A stretch of DNA of 37,588 nucleotides. It comes from a virus. Its lineage: Duplodnaviria; Heunggongvirae; Uroviricota; Caudoviricetes. Of this stretch, positions 1-18,626 are shown piece by piece. A program made the translations under genes and the position numbers. Position 1 is the stretch's first letter; every line of letters begins with the position of its first letter. The stretch covers positions 1 to 37,588 of the IMG/VR virus record IMGVR_UViG_2563366827_000004; one strand, 5' to 3'. The notes beneath the pieces are model-generated. The model was given only the letters and a program-made list of their open reading frames with translations, was not told the origin of the DNA and ran no database searches.

Positions 1-1167
1 TCAGGCCTTATGGTGGAAATAATCACTCAGGCGAGAAAACATGCTGCCTTCCCCAACAGATTCCAGGGTAACCAGCGGCCAGTGCGCCACCTGTTTATCA
101 CGGTCGTAAAGTTCAATTTCCCCTACCCGCTGATGGGCGCTAATTGGCGCGGTGAGTTCTTTACCATCAAGGGTATATTTGGCTTTGATATGTGGAATTT
201 CGGCTTTCGGTAGTACCATCCAGAACTCTTGTTCTGTTCCCAGGGCGATATTTTCTTTATCGCCATACCAGATGCGTTCCGTACCGACCTTTTTCCCACG
301 GTGCAAAATTTGCACCGTAGTAAAGTTTTGTTGCCCCCAACGCAGTAATTTTCTTGCCTCTTCCTCACGACCTTTTGCACTGTCAGCCCCCATTACCACT
401 GCAATGAGACGACGCTGCCCATCTACAGCCGAAGCAATGAGGTTAAAACCGGCACCAGAAGTATGACCCGTTTTCAGGCCGTCAACATTCATGGTTTTAT
501 CCCACAACAACCCGTTACGGTTTTGCTGGGTGATACCGTTCCAGGTGAGACTTTTCTCACTGTACATATGATAAAACTCGGGCTCGCCGTGGATGATAGC
601 ACGAGAAAGCACAGCTAAATCATAAGCCGAGCTATGCTGGCCAGGTGCATCCAGACCATGCACTGTTTCAAAATGCGTATCCTTGAGATGCAGCTTCTCG
701 GCATAGTTGTTCATCATTTCAACAAACTGCCGTTGCCCACCGGCAATATAGTCAGCCAGAGCAACACAAGCGTCATTTCCGGAATCCACAATTAAACCAC
801 GGCTTAAATCATGTACCGATACGCGATCGCCCTCTTTCAAAAACATCAGTGAAGAACCGACAAACACCGGATTATCTTTCGCCCACGCATCGCGCCCCAC
901 GGTGACAATATCGTCTGGCGTAATGCGATGACTATCGATAGCGCGATCCACGACATAACCCGTCATCAGCTTTGTCAGGCTGGCGGGATTGCGCTGTTGA
1001 TGCTCATTACCCGCGGTGAGGATCTGACCGGTGGTGTAATCCATCAGTACCCAGGACCCGGCATGAATCTGTGGAGGCTGAGGTGAAAAAGGAATGTTTT
1101 CCGCCGCAAAACCAGACGATAAGTTAAAAACGAACAAAGAAGCAGCAATAATAAGACGGCGTTTCAA
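1..1167 (-). CDS. dacD: D-alanyl-D-alanine carboxypeptidase DacD (PBP6b)
   Basis: ORF 1..1173 matches recalled E. coli DacD end to end (MLLKRRLIIAASLFVF...SRLSDYFHHKA). Probable TTG start at 1167, 7 nt after GAGGG, giving 388 aa. Confidence 0.9.
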   Translation of the reverse strand: MKRRLIIAASLFVFNLSSGFAAENIPFSPQPPQIHAGSWVLMDYTTGQILTAGNEHQQRNPASLTKLMTGYVVDRAIDSHRITPDDIVTVGRDAWAKDNPVFVGSSLMFLKEGDRVSVHDLSRGLIVDSGNDACVALADYIAGGQRQFVEMMNNYAEKLHLKDTHFETVHGLDAPGQHSSAYDLAVLSRAIIHGEPEFYHMYSEKSLTWNGITQQNRNGLLWDKTMNVDGLKTGHTSGAGFNLIASAVDGQRRLIAVVMGADSAKGREEEARKLLRWGQQNFTTVQILHRGKKVGTERIWYGDKENIALGTEQEFWMVLPKAEIPHIKAKYTLDGKELTAPISAHQRVGEIELYDRDKQVAHWPLVTLESVGEGSMFSRLSDYFHHKA

Positions 1168-1375
1168 CAGCAAACCCTCAGGAGTTTCAAATAGCTGTTC
1201 TTTTTACGGAAATACTTATGAACTGGCTGGAATAAAGTGCAAGAAAATGTGACTACTCTCTCATTTTTATCTGACATGATCTGTTGCCACTCGCTGTCAA
1301 ATTGTTGCGCTAAAGCTGATTAGCACGGTGATATTTGATACTCTGGCAGACAGCAGAAATAACGGATTTAACCTA

Positions 1376-1502: not shown

Positions 1503-1847
1503 CACAATTTTCACTTCAGCGGGTAGTCATCAAACTCACCATAACGAGCATCGTTAATGATGTATGTGATCACCACAAATATCACATCTGGACTAGTTCC
1601 GTCTTCATGCGCAGGTATCTGTTCACGCCTCCCTTTCTGCAAATCCTAAAGATGAGATTTTGGGGTTTTGGGATATCTTTTTATCCTCAGTTCTCTATCA
1701 ATTCTACAAAGCAGTAATGAACCATCACTATGTGATAGTGAGGCATCCGCTACATTAAGCGCAGAGAAATGATGCAGTGGTGGGCGGACTGGCTTGATGA
1801 AAAGGTGGAGTGATGGTTATTCTAAATAAAAATAATGCATTAATTTA

Positions 1848-1870
1848 GCCCTTACATTATCTGTAAGGGC
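1848..1870. terminator. Hairpin just downstream of the tailspike stop
   Basis: gcccttaca-ttatc-tgtaagggc, a 9-bp perfect stem. T-rich flanks are modest on both strands. Confidence 0.4.
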
Positions 1871-1883
1871 TTTGCCTTAAAAA

Positions 1884-3731
1884 TTAAAAAAACTCTTTTC
1901 CTGTTGTAAACATGCCTTCGGGAAGACGCGCACCGTTAACTGAAGAAAATATAGGACCATAATATTGCTTGTTATAGCTTTGTTGAAATGAAATATATCC
2001 ACCACCATATCCGTTATCTGACATATTTACTTGCGAAAAATAACAATTAATTGTTGACGCATCAATATCTCTAAACTGCTGCATGAATCCGCATTGGCCA
2101 ACAACAACATCACCATCATCTTCTTTTTTTGTTAAAATAGGAAGGTGAATCCAGTTAAAATTCCTTGCGCTCGTAGCCATATGTGTATACACGCGCTCGC
2201 AAATAATATCATCACCAGATGTTTTATTTATTGCATAATTTGTCACGTTTGCTCCATCGCCAAATATAGTTTCAGCAACATAGCTATATGTAGATGACGA
2301 AACTGTAAGCGTTGATGCTGTATGTAGTGTTACATGCCTTGATAAGAGCAATTTAGGAGCATAACCAGAATCAAGGTTAAAGGATGCATTTTCTGTCCTC
2401 AACCTTTGAAGAAAATCACTATGACCACCATGGTATGTACCGAAGAACTTTCCAGTTGATAATTCTTTTGCAGCAAACTCTGTTGCTCCATTCCCACCGA
2501 AGTAATATGAAGGCCCCCCATTCACAAAAGGAGTTATTGTTGCTATAAAATTGTCATAATCTAGTAATTCACAACATCCAAGGCTAAAAACGTTTAGCCC
2601 AACGAGATTTGCAGGTTGAAGCGTTGTCGTATCTGTATTTTCAACTTTAAGATACCAAGTTCCTCCAAGTCCATTTATTTCAATATCAATAGGAAGTGGT
2701 GGCTGACCACCTGGTAATATTTTTGTGTCAACGATCTTTTGCGTTGTCCAGTCAGTGTTGTTTCTGCTTATTGATATTGTTACTGACTTACTTGATGCAT
2801 TAGAGCATGCAAGTCTGACATGCGCTATGCTATTTGTTAACATATATGTTACATAAGCGTTTGTGGAAATTGAATAAACTTGAGGTGTGTTAAGGGTGAA
2901 ATCACCTTGTTCTGTTTCCGCGTGTATAGCGTCATCTGTTTTAGAAAAGCCATACAATGTACTTATTTGAGATTCAGTAAATGAAGATAGGGAGACGCCA
3001 GTGTCACTTTTTGTATGTGGTGATAATTTTGCGATAACTGCATCACTTACCATATATACACTTCCAGGCCTAAAAGGTGATGCCCCGCCATAGTTATTCG
3101 AGTCTGATGGTGAAACCTCATTTGTTACTCTATGAGAAATATATTTTCCTTTCCCATGACATCTTTTACTTATAATATAAAAGTCATTAGAATTTTCATC
3201 TTTGACTATTGCTTTTATGTGTGTTGTTATTGTAGGTGATGTTGGGGGGATGATTGATGTCACAAAGTTAACATCTATAGATTTTCGCACATTAATAAAT
3301 TCATCATCTATACTAGTAATTTTATCTTTTAACGTTCCATCTTCATATCCAATATTTTCAGTCCCATCAGGACCTGCGAGAGACTTTGATAGTTGATCCG
3401 GGTCATACTTCAGAACATTCGGAAAATAGAACTGCTGCGCACCATACGCATCATAAACAGCCATAGAGTGGCCTTGCACGGTTACAAACTTGGCAATCTG
3501 TCCGTTATATACCGGATATCCAGAAGCGTTAATGATGATTGGTTGCGAAACAGGAACGTGAGAACCGTCTTCATTTTCCACATAAACCTGAATCTGGTTT
3601 TCATGATTTACCGGGTCAGTGTCAATTTTACCGATATAAATTTTACCATTAGCTACGGCTTTAAAAGAACGAGCCATAGTGAAGAGTTGCGAAGGCATTC
3701 CTATAACCACATTTGGTGTTATATTAGTCAT
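1884..3731 (-). CDS. Tailspike protein with P22 gp9-like N-terminal head-binding domain and divergent receptor-binding body
   Basis: From the internal Met at 3731 the first ~110 aa (MTNITPNVV...RSFKAVANGKIYIGKIDTDPVN...VQGHSMAVYDA...VLKYDPDQ) closely match the recalled P22 tailspike N-terminus. GGA RBS upstream. The rest does not resemble P22. Confidence 0.85.
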   Translation of the reverse strand: MTNITPNVVIGMPSQLFTMARSFKAVANGKIYIGKIDTDPVNHENQIQVYVENEDGSHVPVSQPIIINASGYPVYNGQIAKFVTVQGHSMAVYDAYGAQQFYFPNVLKYDPDQLSKSLAGPDGTENIGYEDGTLKDKITSIDDEFINVRKSIDVNFVTSIIPPTSPTITTHIKAIVKDENSNDFYIISKRCHGKGKYISHRVTNEVSPSDSNNYGGASPFRPGSVYMVSDAVIAKLSPHTKSDTGVSLSSFTESQISTLYGFSKTDDAIHAETEQGDFTLNTPQVYSISTNAYVTYMLTNSIAHVRLACSNASSKSVTISISRNNTDWTTQKIVDTKILPGGQPPLPIDIEINGLGGTWYLKVENTDTTTLQPANLVGLNVFSLGCCELLDYDNFIATITPFVNGGPSYYFGGNGATEFAAKELSTGKFFGTYHGGHSDFLQRLRTENASFNLDSGYAPKLLLSRHVTLHTASTLTVSSSTYSYVAETIFGDGANVTNYAINKTSGDDIICERVYTHMATSARNFNWIHLPILTKKEDDGDVVVGQCGFMQQFRDIDASTINCYFSQVNMSDNGYGGGYISFQQSYNKQYYGPIFSSVNGARLPEGMFTTGKEFF

Positions 3732-3833
3732 GTGTGCAATCCTATTAGACTTGTTTGATAAAGAAGATAATGGAGTTAATGCTACAAATGACGCTATTGA
3801 TTTGAAAAATGATCTTCTATTCATATTAAACAC

Positions 3834-3862
3834 ACATTAATGCAGAAAATTTGCATTAATGT
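3834..3862. promoter_or_regulatory. Perfect 11-bp inverted repeat (acattaatgca-N7-tgcattaatgt) between ejection-protein gene and tailspike
   Basis: Seen directly in the 190-bp gap upstream of the tailspike start. Operator or RNA hairpin. Confidence 0.35.
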
Positions 3863-3922
3863 AAGCAAAAAGCGCAATCAACTCCATAGCAATTTAATTT
3901 TTAACTGTAATTTACATCTACA

Positions 3923-5920
3923 TTACCATGACAACGCATCAGACTTAGCCCCCTGCGTCATAGCGTTAATGGCCTTTTGCGCCTGCTGCATGGCTTTCTC
4001 GAACACTGTTGATCCGCGTGGGGTGTTTGCCATTCGGAGCATTGCATTTCTGAATGGCTCGCTCTCATAGGCGCGAGTAAGAAGTCCGTAGCTTACTGCT
4101 GCGCCAGTTGTTGCAGGGTTCATTGCCGTCCCATACCCGATAATGAACGGGATGGTTTGCTGGCCTGTTGGTGTTGTTACTGCCGCTTTTGCAGCCTGCT
4201 GCGTGGATTGCAGGTAGTTTTTTAATCCTTTCAGATAAGCAGCGTCCTGCCCCTTAAATGTGATGCCAGTCTGGTTTTGCAGGATGTTAAGCTGCCGAAG
4301 GAACTGGTCAGGGGATCCGCCAGATTTCTCCATCGCCTTTCCAATGATGCCATTGCGCATTTGCGCCCTGCCAACACGACCAACTGAGTTATACAGCGTC
4401 TTAATTTCCGATTTGTTCTTGCTGAATAGCATGTTGTTGACAACTTCCGGCGTCAGGTCTCCTTTCATGAGAACATTCTTCAGCCTGGTATTCTTTAGTT
4501 TCGCCGCTTCGTCAGCGTAGACGGCATTGGCCTGCTGATATTTACGGAGAGTATCGTTGCCAAGATTCTGACCAATGGCACCATTGATATCGTCGGTCAT
4601 CGCCTTGTAAACACGTTGAATGGCGGCATCGGAACGGTTTGGTAACACTGGTCGCTCCCCCTTCACGTCCATTCTGAACTGGCTGCGCAGATCGCTTAAT
4701 TGCTTCAAATCCAGATTAACCGGACCATCAGGGCCAGCATTGCGAACAAGCTCATCACGATATGACTGAAGTTTTGAAATTGTCTCGTTATCAGCTACCT
4801 TACCAAGCTTCTGCAGATTAGATATTTCTGTATCAATCTGCTGAATTGCTCGCGCAGGCTGAATGTTTACTCCAGCCATAGCATTCTGAACCTGCTCCAG
4901 TCGATTACCGGCGGCACGACGAATTCCTGATGTTTTCGCTTTAAGGCTGTCAATAACAACAGATGGATCATACTCACCGAATTTATCAGCAAATCTCTGC
5001 ACCAACTGACTTCTCGCTTCCTGTTGCGTTGCTCTCATTCCGCTTGTGCCAGCCAGGGGGATATTTTCTGCTGTAGTCTGCGCCATTTTCCCGACGCGGG
5101 AAGTAGGCTGTAACAGGTCTGTGGTGTGCAGAGGAACTCCTTCACGCTCTGCAAATCTGATAGCCTGCTGCGCTTCTGGCGCAATAGCACCACGAACGCC
5201 ACGATAAGCAGCACCTAATCCACGTCCGGCAGCGTTAATAGCACCGCCAGCCAACACACCAACGCCTAAATCGGTGGCGAGTGCTTCCGCATCATCTTTC
5301 GCACTATTTGCAGCAAGTGATCCAACTGCGTTTTCTGCGAGAAGTCGTGTTGCCCCATGAGCAATTCGACCAGCAAGTGTTGGTGCCTGTGTTGCCGCCC
5401 TCTCAACGCCAGCAGGAGTGAGGTAAGGCAATGCTTCAGCAAATACCCTTCCCTCTGTCGTTTGTGGCGTCAGCGCGCCTTGCTGAAGGCCAAAGTCCTG
5501 CTCTAATCCCTGCGTTGTTACTCGTGGTGCTGGTTGATATGTACCATCGCCAATGCCGAGTTTACCGCCAGCCCAAGCCGCCGCGCTTGTTACAGCATCG
5601 GCAACTGATGCAGGTATGTTTGCCACGTTCACGCCAGCCTGCACCAGTCCGCGACCAGTCTCTTTCACTGCTTCACCAAGATCAGGCATAAATCCACTTT
5701 GCTGTGGTTGTTGCTGTGCTACTGGTTGCTGTGTCTCCACTGGCTGCACAGATGGCAATGGATAGGCTGCATAGAAAGCTTGCTTAGCCTGCTCTGCATT
5801 TTCTCCGGCTTGCGGGGCCACGACTTCATTGAAGTATTGCTCCTGAGCCTGCGCTTTTTGTTCTGGTGCTAACGCCTGATACTGTGGAGAGGCGATAACA
5901 TCTTTCCATGCTTTAGCCAT
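3923..5920 (-). CDS. DNA ejection (injection) protein, P22 gp16 position
   Basis: 665-aa ORF at the gp16 position of the conserved P22 order 7-20-16-tailspike; start overlaps upstream stop. Assigned by synteny and size only. Confidence 0.6.
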   Translation of the reverse strand: MAKAWKDVIASPQYQALAPEQKAQAQEQYFNEVVAPQAGENAEQAKQAFYAAYPLPSVQPVETQQPVAQQQPQQSGFMPDLGEAVKETGRGLVQAGVNVANIPASVADAVTSAAAWAGGKLGIGDGTYQPAPRVTTQGLEQDFGLQQGALTPQTTEGRVFAEALPYLTPAGVERAATQAPTLAGRIAHGATRLLAENAVGSLAANSAKDDAEALATDLGVGVLAGGAINAAGRGLGAAYRGVRGAIAPEAQQAIRFAEREGVPLHTTDLLQPTSRVGKMAQTTAENIPLAGTSGMRATQQEARSQLVQRFADKFGEYDPSVVIDSLKAKTSGIRRAAGNRLEQVQNAMAGVNIQPARAIQQIDTEISNLQKLGKVADNETISKLQSYRDELVRNAGPDGPVNLDLKQLSDLRSQFRMDVKGERPVLPNRSDAAIQRVYKAMTDDINGAIGQNLGNDTLRKYQQANAVYADEAAKLKNTRLKNVLMKGDLTPEVVNNMLFSKNKSEIKTLYNSVGRVGRAQMRNGIIGKAMEKSGGSPDQFLRQLNILQNQTGITFKGQDAAYLKGLKNYLQSTQQAAKAAVTTPTGQQTIPFIIGYGTAMNPATTGAAVSYGLLTRAYESEPFRNAMLRMANTPRGSTVFEKAMQQAQKAINAMTQGAKSDALSW

Positions 5921-7215
5921 TAATCACCCCATAGTGAAGAAAAATTACTGCCAGTAGTAGGTTGTTGCGCTGGCGTATTCTGTACTGGCTCCTGATAATC
6001 AAACTGTTTTTTAACAGTGCTCAACTTGCTTTCAAGCTGATTTCTAATCTTTCCGATAGAGTCACGAAAAGCCTTTTCACTCATTTTGGGGCTTAGGGCA
6101 CCAACCGCATCGGATAATTTTTTACCCTCAGCATCTGAAAGAGCACCCATACCCTTCAGGGACTGCACCATAGGAAGGAATGTTTGAGCTTTAAAGGTGT
6201 CGAGCCTTGCTTCAAAGTTAGCCGCATCAGAGCCAGGAACTGTCGGAAACGCTGAGCGAATTCCTACTGCTTTTGAAAGGCCGGGGCTTTGCTCTATCTC
6301 GTTGAGAGAATCAAGCGCGGTGCTGAACGTATCAACTGCACCCTGAGCGGCGGCCTGCCTGTCAGCGCGGGCTATGTCAGCCTTTTGCCGAACATCTGCC
6401 TGTTTCTGTTTTAGCTCTTCAAGCTTTAACTGATTGCTTTCTCTGGCTATCTGTCTGTCCAGAGCCTTTTCTTGTAATTCTGCTCTTTGTATTTCTCGGG
6501 AAAGAGCAGCATTCTGTGCGCTGATGTTCTGTCCACGTATCTGGATGTCCTGACCTCGAGCTGTTAGTGCTTCACCTGCCTGATTGCTGCGGATTGTCTC
6601 TGCCAGCCTGCCTCGGTCAATCTCACGACCAGCCATCTTGTCCTGAACATTGAAGTAATCAATCGGACCAAGCGCGGCCATTCCAAGGTGATCAACAAAC
6701 TCACCAAATCCTGAAGGATTCTGCTGATACATCTGAGCAACGTTATTAGGGTCAACACCGACGCGCGCCAGCTCATTGGCGTTGTTTTGCAGCCATGATT
6801 GCATTGCTTCTGGAGACGATGACGCAAGGCGTGCGCCAGCCGCTAAGGTGCCGATAGAATTACGCTGATCTTCATCAATGAATCCCATGCCTTTACGAAC
6901 GGATTCAATCTGTTCTGGATATTGAGTAGCCAACTGACGCAAAGCTCCGCGATCACCAGACGCATAAGCATTAGCGTACGCCTGCTGAAATTCTTTCTGC
7001 CGCTGAGCCTGCTTTTCCTGCTGAAACACCCCTGCAATACCTGAAAGACCTTGCAAAGCAGTCAGCCCAACATTGTTAGCGCCTGAACGCTCAATATCAT
7101 TGTTCTGCCTGATAAGCTGAAGCGTATTGCCGATGTCATTTACGCTCGGAGCGTTTGAGTTGACGCCGCCGATACCAGCTAACAATCCGCCATTTGATCC
7201 TTGCCAAGTAGCCAT
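5920..7215 (-). CDS. DNA ejection protein, P22 gp20 position
   Basis: 431-aa ORF between the gp7 and gp16 homologs; synteny. Confidence 0.6.
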   Translation of the reverse strand: MATWQGSNGGLLAGIGGVNSNAPSVNDIGNTLQLIRQNNDIERSGANNVGLTALQGLSGIAGVFQQEKQAQRQKEFQQAYANAYASGDRGALRQLATQYPEQIESVRKGMGFIDEDQRNSIGTLAAGARLASSSPEAMQSWLQNNANELARVGVDPNNVAQMYQQNPSGFGEFVDHLGMAALGPIDYFNVQDKMAGREIDRGRLAETIRSNQAGEALTARGQDIQIRGQNISAQNAALSREIQRAELQEKALDRQIARESNQLKLEELKQKQADVRQKADIARADRQAAAQGAVDTFSTALDSLNEIEQSPGLSKAVGIRSAFPTVPGSDAANFEARLDTFKAQTFLPMVQSLKGMGALSDAEGKKLSDAVGALSPKMSEKAFRDSIGKIRNQLESKLSTVKKQFDYQEPVQNTPAQQPTTGSNFSSLWGD

Positions 7216-10503: not shown

Positions 10504-10965
10504 TCACGTACTCGGATCATCTTTCTCGATGTAAAACCGATTCCACGTAAACGCGCTTTTGTTACCACTACCGCGAGGCATGTCATTTCGTCGCTCAAGT
10601 GGTGGTATTTTTGTTAAAGCGATACAGATTGTCTGATATGCACTGTCAGCAGTGGTCAGGAGAGCATCCGACGGCTGAATGACGTTATCCATGCACACCT
10701 GCACAGCGAGCTTCAAAGCGACGCCATCATTTGCCCATGCAGGGATACCTGAATCATCGTCAGGTAACGGCATGATGCCGTTTTCTGTATCAGCAAACTG
10801 ATATCCAAGCTCGATACCTTTCGCCTGCCATGCTGCCATCATGTCTTCGAGGTCATTAATGGCATCTTCAATTGCCTGAGGGTCGGCATCTGTCAACGTG
10901 GCATTGGAATACAGCCCGGCTTTTCGTAAAGCCTTAAGAACGAGATCACCCTTCGTTTTCGCCAT
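10504..10965 (-). CDS. Tail adaptor / head completion protein, P22 gp4-like
   Basis: 153 aa, directly downstream of the coat gene block; synteny. Confidence 0.65.
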   Translation of the reverse strand: MAKTKGDLVLKALRKAGLYSNATLTDADPQAIEDAINDLEDMMAAWQAKGIELGYQFADTENGIMPLPDDDSGIPAWANDGVALKLAVQVCMDNVIQPSDALLTTADSAYQTICIALTKIPPLERRNDMPRGSGNKSAFTWNRFYIEKDDPST

Positions 10966-11175: not shown

Positions 11176-12429
11176 TTACTGCCCGGCAATAACGATGCCC
11201 GTATATTCAGGAACAAGTACAGAGCAACCATACAGAGTGGTGAAACGAGCAGTGGTTACGCCTTTGATGTGGTCGAAGGCGTAAGACATGATCAGCGTAG
11301 CGCCCTGCTCGGTGGTTGCTGTCATTACCTGTGGACCCTGACCAGTCGGGAACGCCAGTTTGCCGTACATCAGTTCAACAGAACCATCAGCCCAGAACAG
11401 GTTAGCCGGTGCGGCATTTTTGTTGAGAATGGTAATTGCTGCACCATTTGCCGCGTTAGCATCAACGTTTGCATATGGACGGCTGGCGACATCCGCGTTG
11501 TCAGGCGGCAGAATTTTCGGGGAGATAGTTACTGTCGTTCCGCTAACTGCAAGAACGCGGAATACCTGTGGCTGCCCGGTGGTGTCTTTGGTGATCTGGT
11601 GTACGGAATTCACGTCAGCAATGGTGAACGCATCGCCAACCTGCAAACCAGATGCAGATACCGTAATAGTCCCCTGTCGGTTATCCACTGGCATATCGTT
11701 GGCATCTTTCGCTTCAACCTTGTGCGCAGGTTCAGCCGCCAGCGTCAGGGAAGTTGCTGTACCCTTCGGAACACGACCAGAAATATCGGTCTTGTAGCTA
11801 TCGAAGGACGCAACCGGAGGGATCTGCGCTTTTTCGTATGCTGTCAGGGTTGCGCCCTGAGCATAGGCACGGTGACCAAGCTCGCCAGCAAGGTCTTTGT
11901 AGTTGAAGGGGTTCCAGAAAGAGCGACGGTTGATACCCTGAGGTACACCAATCGCCGTCATGGTGGCATCAATACCTGCCGCACAGTTCCACAAATCACG
12001 GCCCTGTGAACCAGTGGTTGAGTCAGCCATTGTGATCACGTTAGTAGCACGCTGCGTGACCATGGAAATCAGGTCAGAGTCAATCTGTGCAGCAAGGCGC
12101 ATACCTGCGGCGCGACCAGCTTCAGTTTTATGTTCCGGGTCACGCATTTCACGCGCATCCAGAGTGTACAGAATGTTTTTCGGCTCCTTGAACACAGAAG
12201 GAACAAGGCGCTGAACCAGTGCTGTTGGCGTTTTGCTGCTGAGGTCGAGGCCTTCCTCAATGTTCATGTGGTAATGCTGCGGACGATACAGAACATCACC
12301 TGCTCGCTGCATTGCTGTATCACCGGGACGGAATTTTTTAGCGTTACGGGAAACTACGCAGGCGGCCTCAAAGCCTTCAACGTAGTTTTCGAACATGATT
12401 TCAAGGTCTTTTGCTAATTGGTTAGCCAT
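11176..12429 (-). CDS. Major capsid (coat) protein, P22 gp5 family
   Basis: 417 aa, follows the scaffold gene by 18 bp; blocks such as NLFWADGSVELMYG resemble the recalled P22 coat. Confidence 0.8.
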   Translation of the reverse strand: MANQLAKDLEIMFENYVEGFEAACVVSRNAKKFRPGDTAMQRAGDVLYRPQHYHMNIEEGLDLSSKTPTALVQRLVPSVFKEPKNILYTLDAREMRDPEHKTEAGRAAGMRLAAQIDSDLISMVTQRATNVITMADSTTGSQGRDLWNCAAGIDATMTAIGVPQGINRRSFWNPFNYKDLAGELGHRAYAQGATLTAYEKAQIPPVASFDSYKTDISGRVPKGTATSLTLAAEPAHKVEAKDANDMPVDNRQGTITVSASGLQVGDAFTIADVNSVHQITKDTTGQPQVFRVLAVSGTTVTISPKILPPDNADVASRPYANVDANAANGAAITILNKNAAPANLFWADGSVELMYGKLAFPTGQGPQVMTATTEQGATLIMSYAFDHIKGVTTARFTTLYGCSVLVPEYTGIVIAGQ

Positions 12430-18083: not shown

Positions 18084-18626
18084 TTAATTAGTGAGTCCGG
18101 GGATTACGGTTTGCCCGTGCTGTTCAAGGCGTTCAATTCTCGCCAGTAGCTGAGGCTTCTTAATTTTTCCCCAGCGATTGAGCAGGCGACCTGACATGCT
18201 GGCAACATCCTTCTCTTTCATGTACTCCAGCATTACGGCATTTCTCTCTTCTTCAAATTGACGATGACCAACCTGAAGCATGGCGTACATCCAGTTAAAT
18301 GCGTTGATGTAAGCAATTTTGATACGCATTGCTTCTTTTTTGGTGTAGGACATAACCAAAAGCATCAACCCATCCTTGCGGAGACGGTAGAATTTTTGCG
18401 GCTTACCATTCTGTAACTCATTGTTTTTATAGCAAAGCTCAAAGTTGAGCTTTGTATCAAACTCAGGAGGGCAAGCTTCTATGGTTCGCTCAATGTCACG
18501 GACTACGTTCTTCGGCAGCTTTCCAAATGCTTTTGCCACCATAAAAGAATCTGTAACCGGATCGTTGTTTGCTACAAAAATTAGGTCTCTGAAATCTATA
18601 TCGTTAACAACGGTTGGGTAGTTCAT
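18084..18626 (-). CDS. rha: Rha-family phage regulatory protein
   Basis: 180 aa; N-terminal block DFRDLIFVANNDPVTDSFMVAKAFGKLPKNVVRDIE resembles the Rha signature. Confidence 0.65.
   Translation of the reverse strand: MNYPTVVNDIDFRDLIFVANNDPVTDSFMVAKAFGKLPKNVVRDIERTIEACPPEFDTKLNFELCYKNNELQNGKPQKFYRLRKDGLMLLVMSYTKKEAMRIKIAYINAFNWMYAMLQVGHRQFEEERNAVMLEYMKEKDVASMSGRLLNRWGKIKKPQLLARIERLEQHGQTVIPGLTN

Follow-up and report, generated by a model that had tools for sequence, protein, structure and literature searches.

The stretch of DNA analysed here (37,588 nt, hereafter the window) comes from a P22-like (Lederbergvirus) prophage of E. coli. Among the ejection genes of the late operon, the gp16-like DNA ejection protein gene (3923-5920, minus strand; 665 aa) comes last; position 3923 is the end of its stop codon. 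At near-identical loci, PGAP names its product 'P22-gp16 family phage DNA ejection protein' or 'lytic transglycosylase domain-containing protein', and its upstream neighbour, an ORF at 5920-7215, gives a match to the Pfam family Inj_translocase. The tailspike gene in its canonical form covers 1884-3731, also on the minus strand, and encodes 615 aa from an ATG at 3731-3729, with a P22-type head-binding domain at the N-terminus. The match to the Pfam Head_binding profile (PF09008, E = 9e-65) has the Met encoded at 3731 as its first residue, and PGAP places the tailspike coding sequence identically in loci that are 100% identical to the window. A Shine-Dalgarno (SD) sequence, AGGA (3740-3743), lies 8 nt upstream of the canonical ATG on the same strand, and the spacing is equal in relatives of the phage JEP4 type.

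The spacer between the two genes, which an earlier note on this DNA had described as a 190-bp gap, is real and measures 191 nt (3732-3922). Both a repeat finder and direct reading of the sequence confirmed the perfect 11-bp palindrome claimed there: two arms of 11 nt (3834-3844 and 3852-3862) that are 100% complementary and separated by 7 nt. The plus strand reads ACATTAATGCA GAAAATT TGCATTAATGT over 3834-3862. On the sense (minus) strand the 5′ arm ACATTAATGCA (3862-3852) is followed by the loop AATTTTC (3851-3845) and the 3′ arm TGCATTAATGT (3844-3834), and an extra U3863.G3833 pair is possible at the base of the stem. The repeat is located 60 nt past the stop codon of gene 16 and 103 nt ahead of the canonical tailspike ATG. 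Upstream of it, the spacer (3863-3922) is AT-rich and holds the motif TTGATT (3881-3876), as well as AAAAATTAAATnGCTATGGAGTTGATTG, which is kept in the diverged relative L248 described below.

Among the perfect inverted repeats of the 37.6-kb window that have loops of at most 12 nt, the 3834-3862 repeat is the longest. Dinucleotide shuffling of the whole window gave such a repeat of 11 bp or more in 9% of cases, and shuffling only the spacer did so in 49 of 20,000, so that the occurrence of the repeat by chance is, as had been proposed, unlikely, if only moderately so. Each arm contains the self-complementary octamer CATTAATG, which has five copies in the window when about one is expected (five were reached in 0 of 100 shuffles). 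Two of these copies are the arms themselves; the other three lie at 10854, 14518 and 37256, at least two of them inside coding sequence. Altogether, five perfect repeats of at least 10 bp are present in the window, nested registers being counted, compared with a shuffle mean of 0.57. Two of the additional palindromes are perfect over 10 bp and have very short loops, ACGGTGCAAA-A-TTTGCACCGT at 298-318 and CAAAGCTCAA-AG-TTGAGCTTTG at 18433-18454.

Another hairpin follows the tailspike stop codon (1847-1871, minus strand). That is, AGCCCTTACA-N5-TGTAAGGGCT forms a perfect 10-bp stem that is GC-richer than the 3834-3862 repeat, with a poor U-tail and a d'Aubenton-Carafa/Lesnik d-score of -48. Directly after it, at 1836-1846, TGCATTAATTT represents a one-mismatch copy of the palindrome arm, so that the tailspike gene has similar 9-11-mers on either side; the number of arm-like copies in the window (three matches, 1.4 expected) is not significant. 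The ORF at 1-1173 (minus strand) encodes a host-type D-alanyl-D-alanine carboxypeptidase (Peptidase_S11 and PBP5_C domains), which places the prophage end between 1173 and about 1840 and makes the tailspike gene the last phage gene at that end.

Folding and distribution of the repeat

A 46-nt segment of the sense strand covering the repeat folds at -14.1 kcal/mol (z = -4.6), and none of 200 shuffled sequences was as stable. The 3834-3862 sequence is therefore a stable hairpin on the transcribed strand, located between two co-oriented late genes. The stem has 12 bp, of which only 3 are G-C pairs, and a 7-nt loop; it does not correspond to the G+C-rich, short-loop stem of an intrinsic terminator. 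Its energy per hairpin nucleotide is 0.39 kcal/mol (ΔG of -12.2 over 31 nt), as against 0.5-0.7 for tANT, the terminator found upstream of the tailspike gene in related phages. The sequence following the stem, GUGUUUAAUAU, contains three consecutive U only (tail score nT = 1.5-2.4). Owing to the AU-rich stem and this tail, the d-score of the repeat is strongly negative (-35 to -53), whereas tANT, run through the same script as a positive control, gave +23 and +30. This comparison rules out that the repeat is a canonical intrinsic terminator. A simple terminator scan did pick out the repeat as a terminator-like, 12-pair structure of the minus strand with the tail TGTTTAATAT, the one match that it returned compared with a shuffle expectation of 0.6 ± 0.8. 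A longer-range pairing between 3877-3887 and 3770-3780, inside which the hairpin would lie, was also considered and rejected: the 206-nt fold is ordinary (z = -0.96), and the arms are conserved in L248 with no covariation.

A 45-nt segment containing the hairpin was found in 18 of 5,426 complete E. coli genomes, with one copy per genome. Together with four IMG/VR contigs, these 18 genomes make up the carriers of the repeat, all with a spacer identity of 98% or more. Several of them are clonal, IS3-disrupted remnants of an ETEC prophage at argW. Agreement among carriers consequently says little about selection. The remnants of E. coli 67-1 and strain 504239, which are among the 100%-identical carriers, lie next to tRNA-Arg and intS, are cut by IS3-family elements, and are reduced to part of a gp20-like ejection gene plus the gp16-like gene, spacer and tailspike gene. 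The hosts of such remnants are human ETEC-type strains, and the tailspike gene is intact inside the otherwise decayed prophage. Natural variants were also observed among prophages, namely an uncompensated arm mutation (T3836G) in one E. coli prophage and a 1-nt deletion in the loop in another. Furthermore, the window and four other loci (L038-L041) share a spacer, extension (the in-frame segment described below) and head-binding module that is at least 98% identical, joined to tailspike bodies of no fewer than four lengths (615, 668, 710 and 743 aa). This arrangement indicates that recombination has combined the module with different receptor-binding domains.

Scanning metagenomes with a degenerate codon-level pattern yielded L248, the sole diverged relative with the same gene order; an isolate-derived contig (L249/L250) has it too. 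The identity between the window and L248 is 90% at the 3′ end of gene 16, 82% in the upstream part of the spacer, 90% in the extension and 89% at the start of the head-binding domain, but only 62% (18 of 29 positions) in the palindrome. The divergence of the palindrome is significant against all flanks (P = 0.0005) and against the non-coding flanks (0.02). In L248 no hairpin is predicted in the interval of the repeat (-6.3 kcal/mol, z = +0.5), and L249 likewise lacks the repeat. The same 32-nt interval of L248 carries instead the sequence AAAGAG, 8 nt before the upstream ATG. RNA folding of JEP4-type leaders also revealed no hairpin at this position. That is, preserved or covarying pairing is absent from the diverged homologues (L248/L249 and the JEP4 type), and the repeat is limited to copies at least 98% identical. 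Given flanks that are 82-90% identical around a palindrome that is not kept, the repeat is lineage-specific and, to judge by parsimony, most likely arose in the lineage of the window. The conservation in related phages that the earlier note had asked for is thus largely missing, as only near-identical copies carry the repeat. The same note had suggested an RNA hairpin in the late transcript, and this idea is physically plausible in view of the stable sense-strand structure and of the hairpins or terminators at the same place in relatives. The case illustrates that a 'perfect' repeat need not be a product of selection but can be a young one.

Hairpins, promoters and operators near related tailspike genes

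In HK620 and epsilon34, tANT is annotated as a rho-independent terminator about 60 nt before the tailspike gene, and CUS-3 and N7 have the tANT sequence at the same place. Like the repeat in the window, tANT (P22, HK620, epsilon34, CUS-3, N7) is a sense-strand stem-loop in the non-coding stretch directly upstream of the tailspike gene. The two differ in that the stem of tANT is short and GC-rich and runs into T7 (d = +23 to +30), whereas the window repeat is AU-rich and has no U-tract (d of -35 or lower), and their sequences are unrelated. In the commonest upstream arrangement, L045-type loci (38 of 80 sampled tailspike loci), tANT is followed by a perfect 9-bp hairpin, GCACTACAC-AAAAA-GTGTAGTGC, about 50 nt before the tailspike ATG.

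A closer parallel in gene order is provided by the Sf6-type phages (Sf6, 683R2, g341c), in which the ejection gene is directly followed by the tailspike gene, with no immI region, and a non-terminating hairpin is located about 25-100 nt before the tailspike start, as in the window. Sf6-type spacers (488-523 of the Sf6 locus L017; L019, L020, L092 and others) contain a 36-nt GC-rich hairpin lacking a U-tract, and the stem of Sf6, 683R2 and g341c folds at -21 to -23 kcal/mol. These hairpins were gathered with a loose pattern, which mostly returned random loci, and then filtered by the presence of a tailspike N-terminus downstream. Across eight variants of the stem, 91.7% of the cells are paired, compared with about 40% in slid controls, and the variants show many G.U pairs on the sense strand and one compensatory pair. 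This suggests that the Sf6-type hairpin is probably a selected RNA element. It differs from that of the window in its GC-rich stem, in its position about 9 nt further downstream and in the maintenance of pairing; the window stem is AU-rich, perfect, and absent from the nearest diverged relative. A 15-mer, CTTACATTAATGCAA, is nevertheless common to the 5′ arm and flank of the window and to the Sf6-type spacers of 683R2 and L092, where the 3′ arm is absent. More generally, the late operons of P22-like phages are recognised to contain internal hairpins and terminators of unknown role (PMC8022706).

The earlier note had also raised the possibility that the repeat is an operator for a dedicated tailspike promoter, on the premise that P22 expresses gene 9 partly from a promoter of its own. 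Gene 9 expression, as Berget, Poteete and Sauer reportedly described in 1983, is really due to read-through from Pant past the terminator tANT, the element annotated in HK620 and epsilon34. A sigma-70 scan of 3500-4200 detected no promoter in the window, while the same scan found TTGATC-17-TAAAAT at the homologous place in phage JEP4. The counterpart in the window, which aligns weakly with the JEP4-type promoter region, is TTGATT (3881-3876)-17-TAATGC (3858-3853, inside the 5′ arm), where the final T of the -10 element is missing. By position, the repeat covers -10 to about +15 of the ancestral promoter, i.e. where an operator would sit. In this respect it resembles the Mnt/Arc operators at Pant in the immI region of P22-like phages, the dyad, with its perfect 11-bp arms, lying over the -10/+1 region of a tailspike-directed promoter as judged from the JEP4-type alignment. 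Unlike those systems, the window has neither an mnt/arc gene nor a functional-looking promoter, and the repeat differs in sequence from the candidate operators of relatives. A blastp comparison of four Mnt/Arc proteins of relatives with all window ORFs gave a best E of 0.28, i.e. no homologue, and no second copy of the repeat or site was present in the regulatory regions of the window. The repeat is thus a dyad-symmetric DNA site that overlaps no detectable promoter and has no cognate repressor gene, and the proposal of a dedicated operator is not supported, the motif being in addition single-copy in host genomes.

The arms were also searched in one genome per species (596 Gb), allowing loops of 3-11 nt, which returned 10 hits in Bacteroidota, Gammaproteobacteria, Firmicutes, Actinobacteria and a deltaproteobacterial MAG. 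Their contexts include xylA-xylB, pstS-pstC, a position upstream of a CobW-like gene, ArsR and TetR neighbourhoods, and a prophage cI/cro-like region. If hairpins of 11 bp or more occur roughly once every 37 kb, multiplying by 4^-11 gives an expectation of some 4 hits. The number is near this expectation and the hits have no common neighbouring gene, so that a widespread operator motif with a common binding protein was rejected. Likewise, one copy per genome and the lack of a second copy in the window exclude a dispersed repeat such as a REP, a MITE or an IS end. The same arms occur in an AT-rich phage contig (IMGVR_UViG_3300046501_000558, positions 11632-11700; L004) as a 12-bp palindrome with a 5-nt loop, accompanied by a third, imperfect half-site, ATGCATTTAATGTAT. 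These sites lie in a divergent promoter region upstream of an operon with a DnaQ-like exonuclease, and the L004 palindrome probably serves as a genuine operator of that contig, with no relation to the window; since the two share no protein, the likeness was regarded as a coincidence.

An in-frame start upstream of the tailspike gene

An ATG overlooked in the earlier note is located at 3824-3822, 9 nt downstream of the palindrome and in frame with the tailspike gene. It opens an in-frame extension of 31 codons, MNRRSFFKSIASFVALTPLSSLSNKSNRIAH (3732-3824, minus strand), which runs free of stop codons into the canonical tailspike start, MTNITPNVV. This means that the spacer, described as a gap, is in part a conserved open reading frame. 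No SD sequence precedes the upstream AUG in the window. The extension was also found in phage JEP4, in E. coli MSHS 472 and in a dozen IMG/VR and metagenome contigs, and is 31-34 codons long across loci (e.g. 1509-1610 in the JEP4 locus L001, 3007-3099 in L002, 5618-5710 in L248 and 406-501 in L026). The tailspikes of JEP4 and Huey are annotated from the upstream start. In all six distinct variants the frame is open, with GTG replacing ATG in one lineage. The variable columns are distributed 8/6/17 over codon positions 1/2/3 (p = 0.036), and nine codon columns vary synonymously only. Judged by these features, the upstream ORF behaves as coding.

Signal peptides of the twin-arginine (Tat) type have an S/T-R-R-x-F-L-K-like motif, a moderately hydrophobic uncharged stretch and a small-x-small cleavage motif. 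In the window, the extension reads N-R-R-S-F-F-K (MNRRSFFK...), followed by SIASFVALTPLSSLS and then by S-L-S|N, and the JEP4-type extension begins with MNRRLFFK (that is, NRRLFFK...SIS|K). The extension of Huey, MKRRTLLKSLLGLTSLLPVKFAAS, is unrelated in sequence and of the same character (KRRTLLK...FAA|S). By its motif, therefore, the 31-residue extension looks like a twin-arginine signal peptide. Searches with the Tat-signal profiles PF10518 and TIGR01409, short profiles that are insensitive, gave no match to the extension at E ≤ 1 (Pfam) or E ≤ 10 (NCBIfam). When the extension was used in searches of homologous proteins and in phmmer searches of 1.84 billion representatives, canonical head-binding domains dominated the results, and only one database protein covers the extension.

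In the literature searched, no description of a Tat-signal-like N-terminus on a phage tailspike was found, the only comparable case being the bacterial WceF of Pantoea stewartii, whose domain order is a Tat signal peptide, a P22-tailspike-like head-binding domain and a beta-helix (PMC7949094). The long form of the window tailspike would match this order. The difference is that WceF, an exopolysaccharide enzyme encoded on the chromosome, has a single start, whereas in the window the signal-like segment lies upstream of an SD-led internal start for the ordinary virion protein. The extension and its upstream start are a more interesting finding than the palindrome. By itself, the latter is one more poorly conserved and minor example among the known hairpins and terminators that precede P22-like tailspike genes, and its value is as a pointer to the adjoining in-frame start, which would give a subset of Lederbergvirus tailspikes a Tat-signal-like N-terminus.

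Origin and possible role of the stem-loop

As described above, the repeat fails the tests for an intrinsic terminator, a promoter-linked operator, a conserved RNA element and a dispersed repeat. It is most likely a recently arisen, lineage-specific stem-loop in the mRNA leader of the tailspike gene, and works like other intra-operon hairpins upstream of Lederbergvirus tailspike genes. In support of this, the hairpin is stable, statistically unusual and on the sense strand, and the hairpins and tANT of relatives are positional analogues. The coding behaviour of the upstream ORF and the AAAGAG that L248 has in place of a hairpin also speak for this reading. Against it stand the lack of conservation, the T3836G and loop-deletion variants and the SD-less upstream AUG.

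Because no sigma-70 promoter was found in the spacer, no source of tailspike mRNA other than read-through from gene 16 is evident. The tailspike would then be read within the late operon coming from gene 16, and such read-through fits what is described for P22-like late operons (PMC8022706). In the late transcript the repeat would form a 12-bp AU-rich stem-loop of -12 to -14 kcal/mol, without causing termination. Acting in cis, the stem-loop would occupy -10 to -39 relative to the upstream AUG at 3824, i.e. the ribosome-loading region, and would take the place of the AAGAG SD-like element that the closest relative has at the same position. Initiation may in this way be biased to the downstream, AGGA-led canonical start, which gives the virion tailspike, whereas initiation at the upstream AUG would add the Tat-signal-like extension of 31 residues. 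An effect on mRNA stability is a possible secondary role of the hairpin. As neither the upstream AUG nor an SD sequence lies inside the stem, the translational effect could be small. We tentatively favour the reading that any effect of the repeat is local and at the RNA level, consisting of reduced ribosome loading at the SD-less upstream AUG and perhaps of some added mRNA stability, with the AGGA-led start dominating; we would give it a little less than an even chance of being correct.

The main rival is that the repeat is a neutral mutational by-product devoid of function, created by one template-switch (quasi-palindrome correction) or patch-replacement event, that has hitch-hiked with the recently spread spacer and head-binding module. 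The differences from L248 are clustered, affecting 11 of 29 positions in the repeat versus about 12% elsewhere, and the occurrence of CTTACATTAATGCAA without the 3′ arm in the Sf6-type spacers of 683R2 and L092 suggests that the 3′ arm was copied from the 5′ arm. Clustered changes that produce a perfect repeat, together with an independent homologue of one arm, would be explained by a single event of this kind. Moreover, the repeat is absent from the JEP4-type outgroup and from L248/L249 and is broken or altered in natural variants, and the near identity of carriers whose C-terminal tailspike modules differ (615 to 743 aa) implies recent spread rather than long-term maintenance. However, hairpins recur at the same place across P22-like phages, with signs of selection in the Sf6-type spacers, and a stem of -14 kcal/mol with 9 nt between its end and a start codon would hardly be fully silent. 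On balance we regard a purely neutral origin as rather unlikely, even if it has to be taken seriously.

Two further explanations are less likely than the neutral one. A dimeric or tetrameric repressor of the phage or the host might bind the repeat as a DNA operator on a weak promoter descended from the JEP4-type, Pant-like promoter. The perfect dyad with a palindromic octamer, CATTAATG, in each arm would suit such a site, as would its position over -10 to about +15 of the degenerate TTGATT-17-TAATGC aligned with the TTGATC-17-TAAAAT of JEP4, and relatives with a divergent mnt gene do have palindromes between mnt and the tailspike gene (ATGCAATCA-N5-TGATTGCAT in IME10/Sf101; AGACCACAGTGGTCT in Gally). 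An operator is nonetheless improbable in the window, where the scan finds no promoter, the '-10' lacks its final T, no Mnt/Arc homologue is encoded, no second site exists and the repeat is single-copy per genome. Furthermore, the occurrences of the same arms in 10 genomes of unrelated phyla and in L004 share no neighbouring gene and are about as many as hairpin abundance predicts, L248 retains the -35-like element and not the repeat, and the arm centres are 18 bp apart, which is neither one nor two helical turns. The repeat might alternatively be a leaky intrinsic terminator or pause site, analogous to tANT, that stops transcription not antiterminated by a Q-type, gp23-like antiterminator before it reaches the tailspike gene. 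The minus-strand label given by the simple scan and the annotation of tANT at the equivalent place in HK620 and epsilon34 point in this direction, and such roles have been proposed for intra-operon terminators in phage L (PMC8022706). With a d-score far below that of tANT, three G-C pairs in the stem, three consecutive U after it and a scan match within shuffle expectation, we consider this explanation more doubtful still.

A bolder version of the mRNA stem-loop reading is that the hairpin would be a translational gate setting the ratio of the virion tailspike (ATG at 3731) to the longer Tat-signal form (ATG at 3824). We think this very unlikely to be the case. If true, the long form would be a glycan-cleaving tailspike sent in the folded state to the periplasm or the surface of the cell, a phage counterpart of WceF, and might remodel the surface polysaccharide of the host in lysogeny or before lysis. 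The output of the gate would then be tuned in a lineage-specific manner, by a promoter and Mnt in the JEP4 type, by an SD-like element in L248 and by the hairpin in the window. The long form, if made and exported, would also provide a mechanistic and evolutionary tie between phage tailspikes and bacterial exopolysaccharide-modifying enzymes.

In the JEP4 locus, about 190 nt upstream of the real gene (1300-1340 of L001), a canonical tailspike leader and start survive as a remnant, GGAGCAAATTAAATGACAGATATTAT. In JEP4-type loci this remnant is followed by the conserved promoter TTGATC-17-TAAAAT (1449-1477 region of L001) and then by the extension, with a divergent mnt/arc-family gene alongside. 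It looks as if recombination had brought a module made up of promoter, signal and head-binding domain into an older tailspike gene at its 5′ end.
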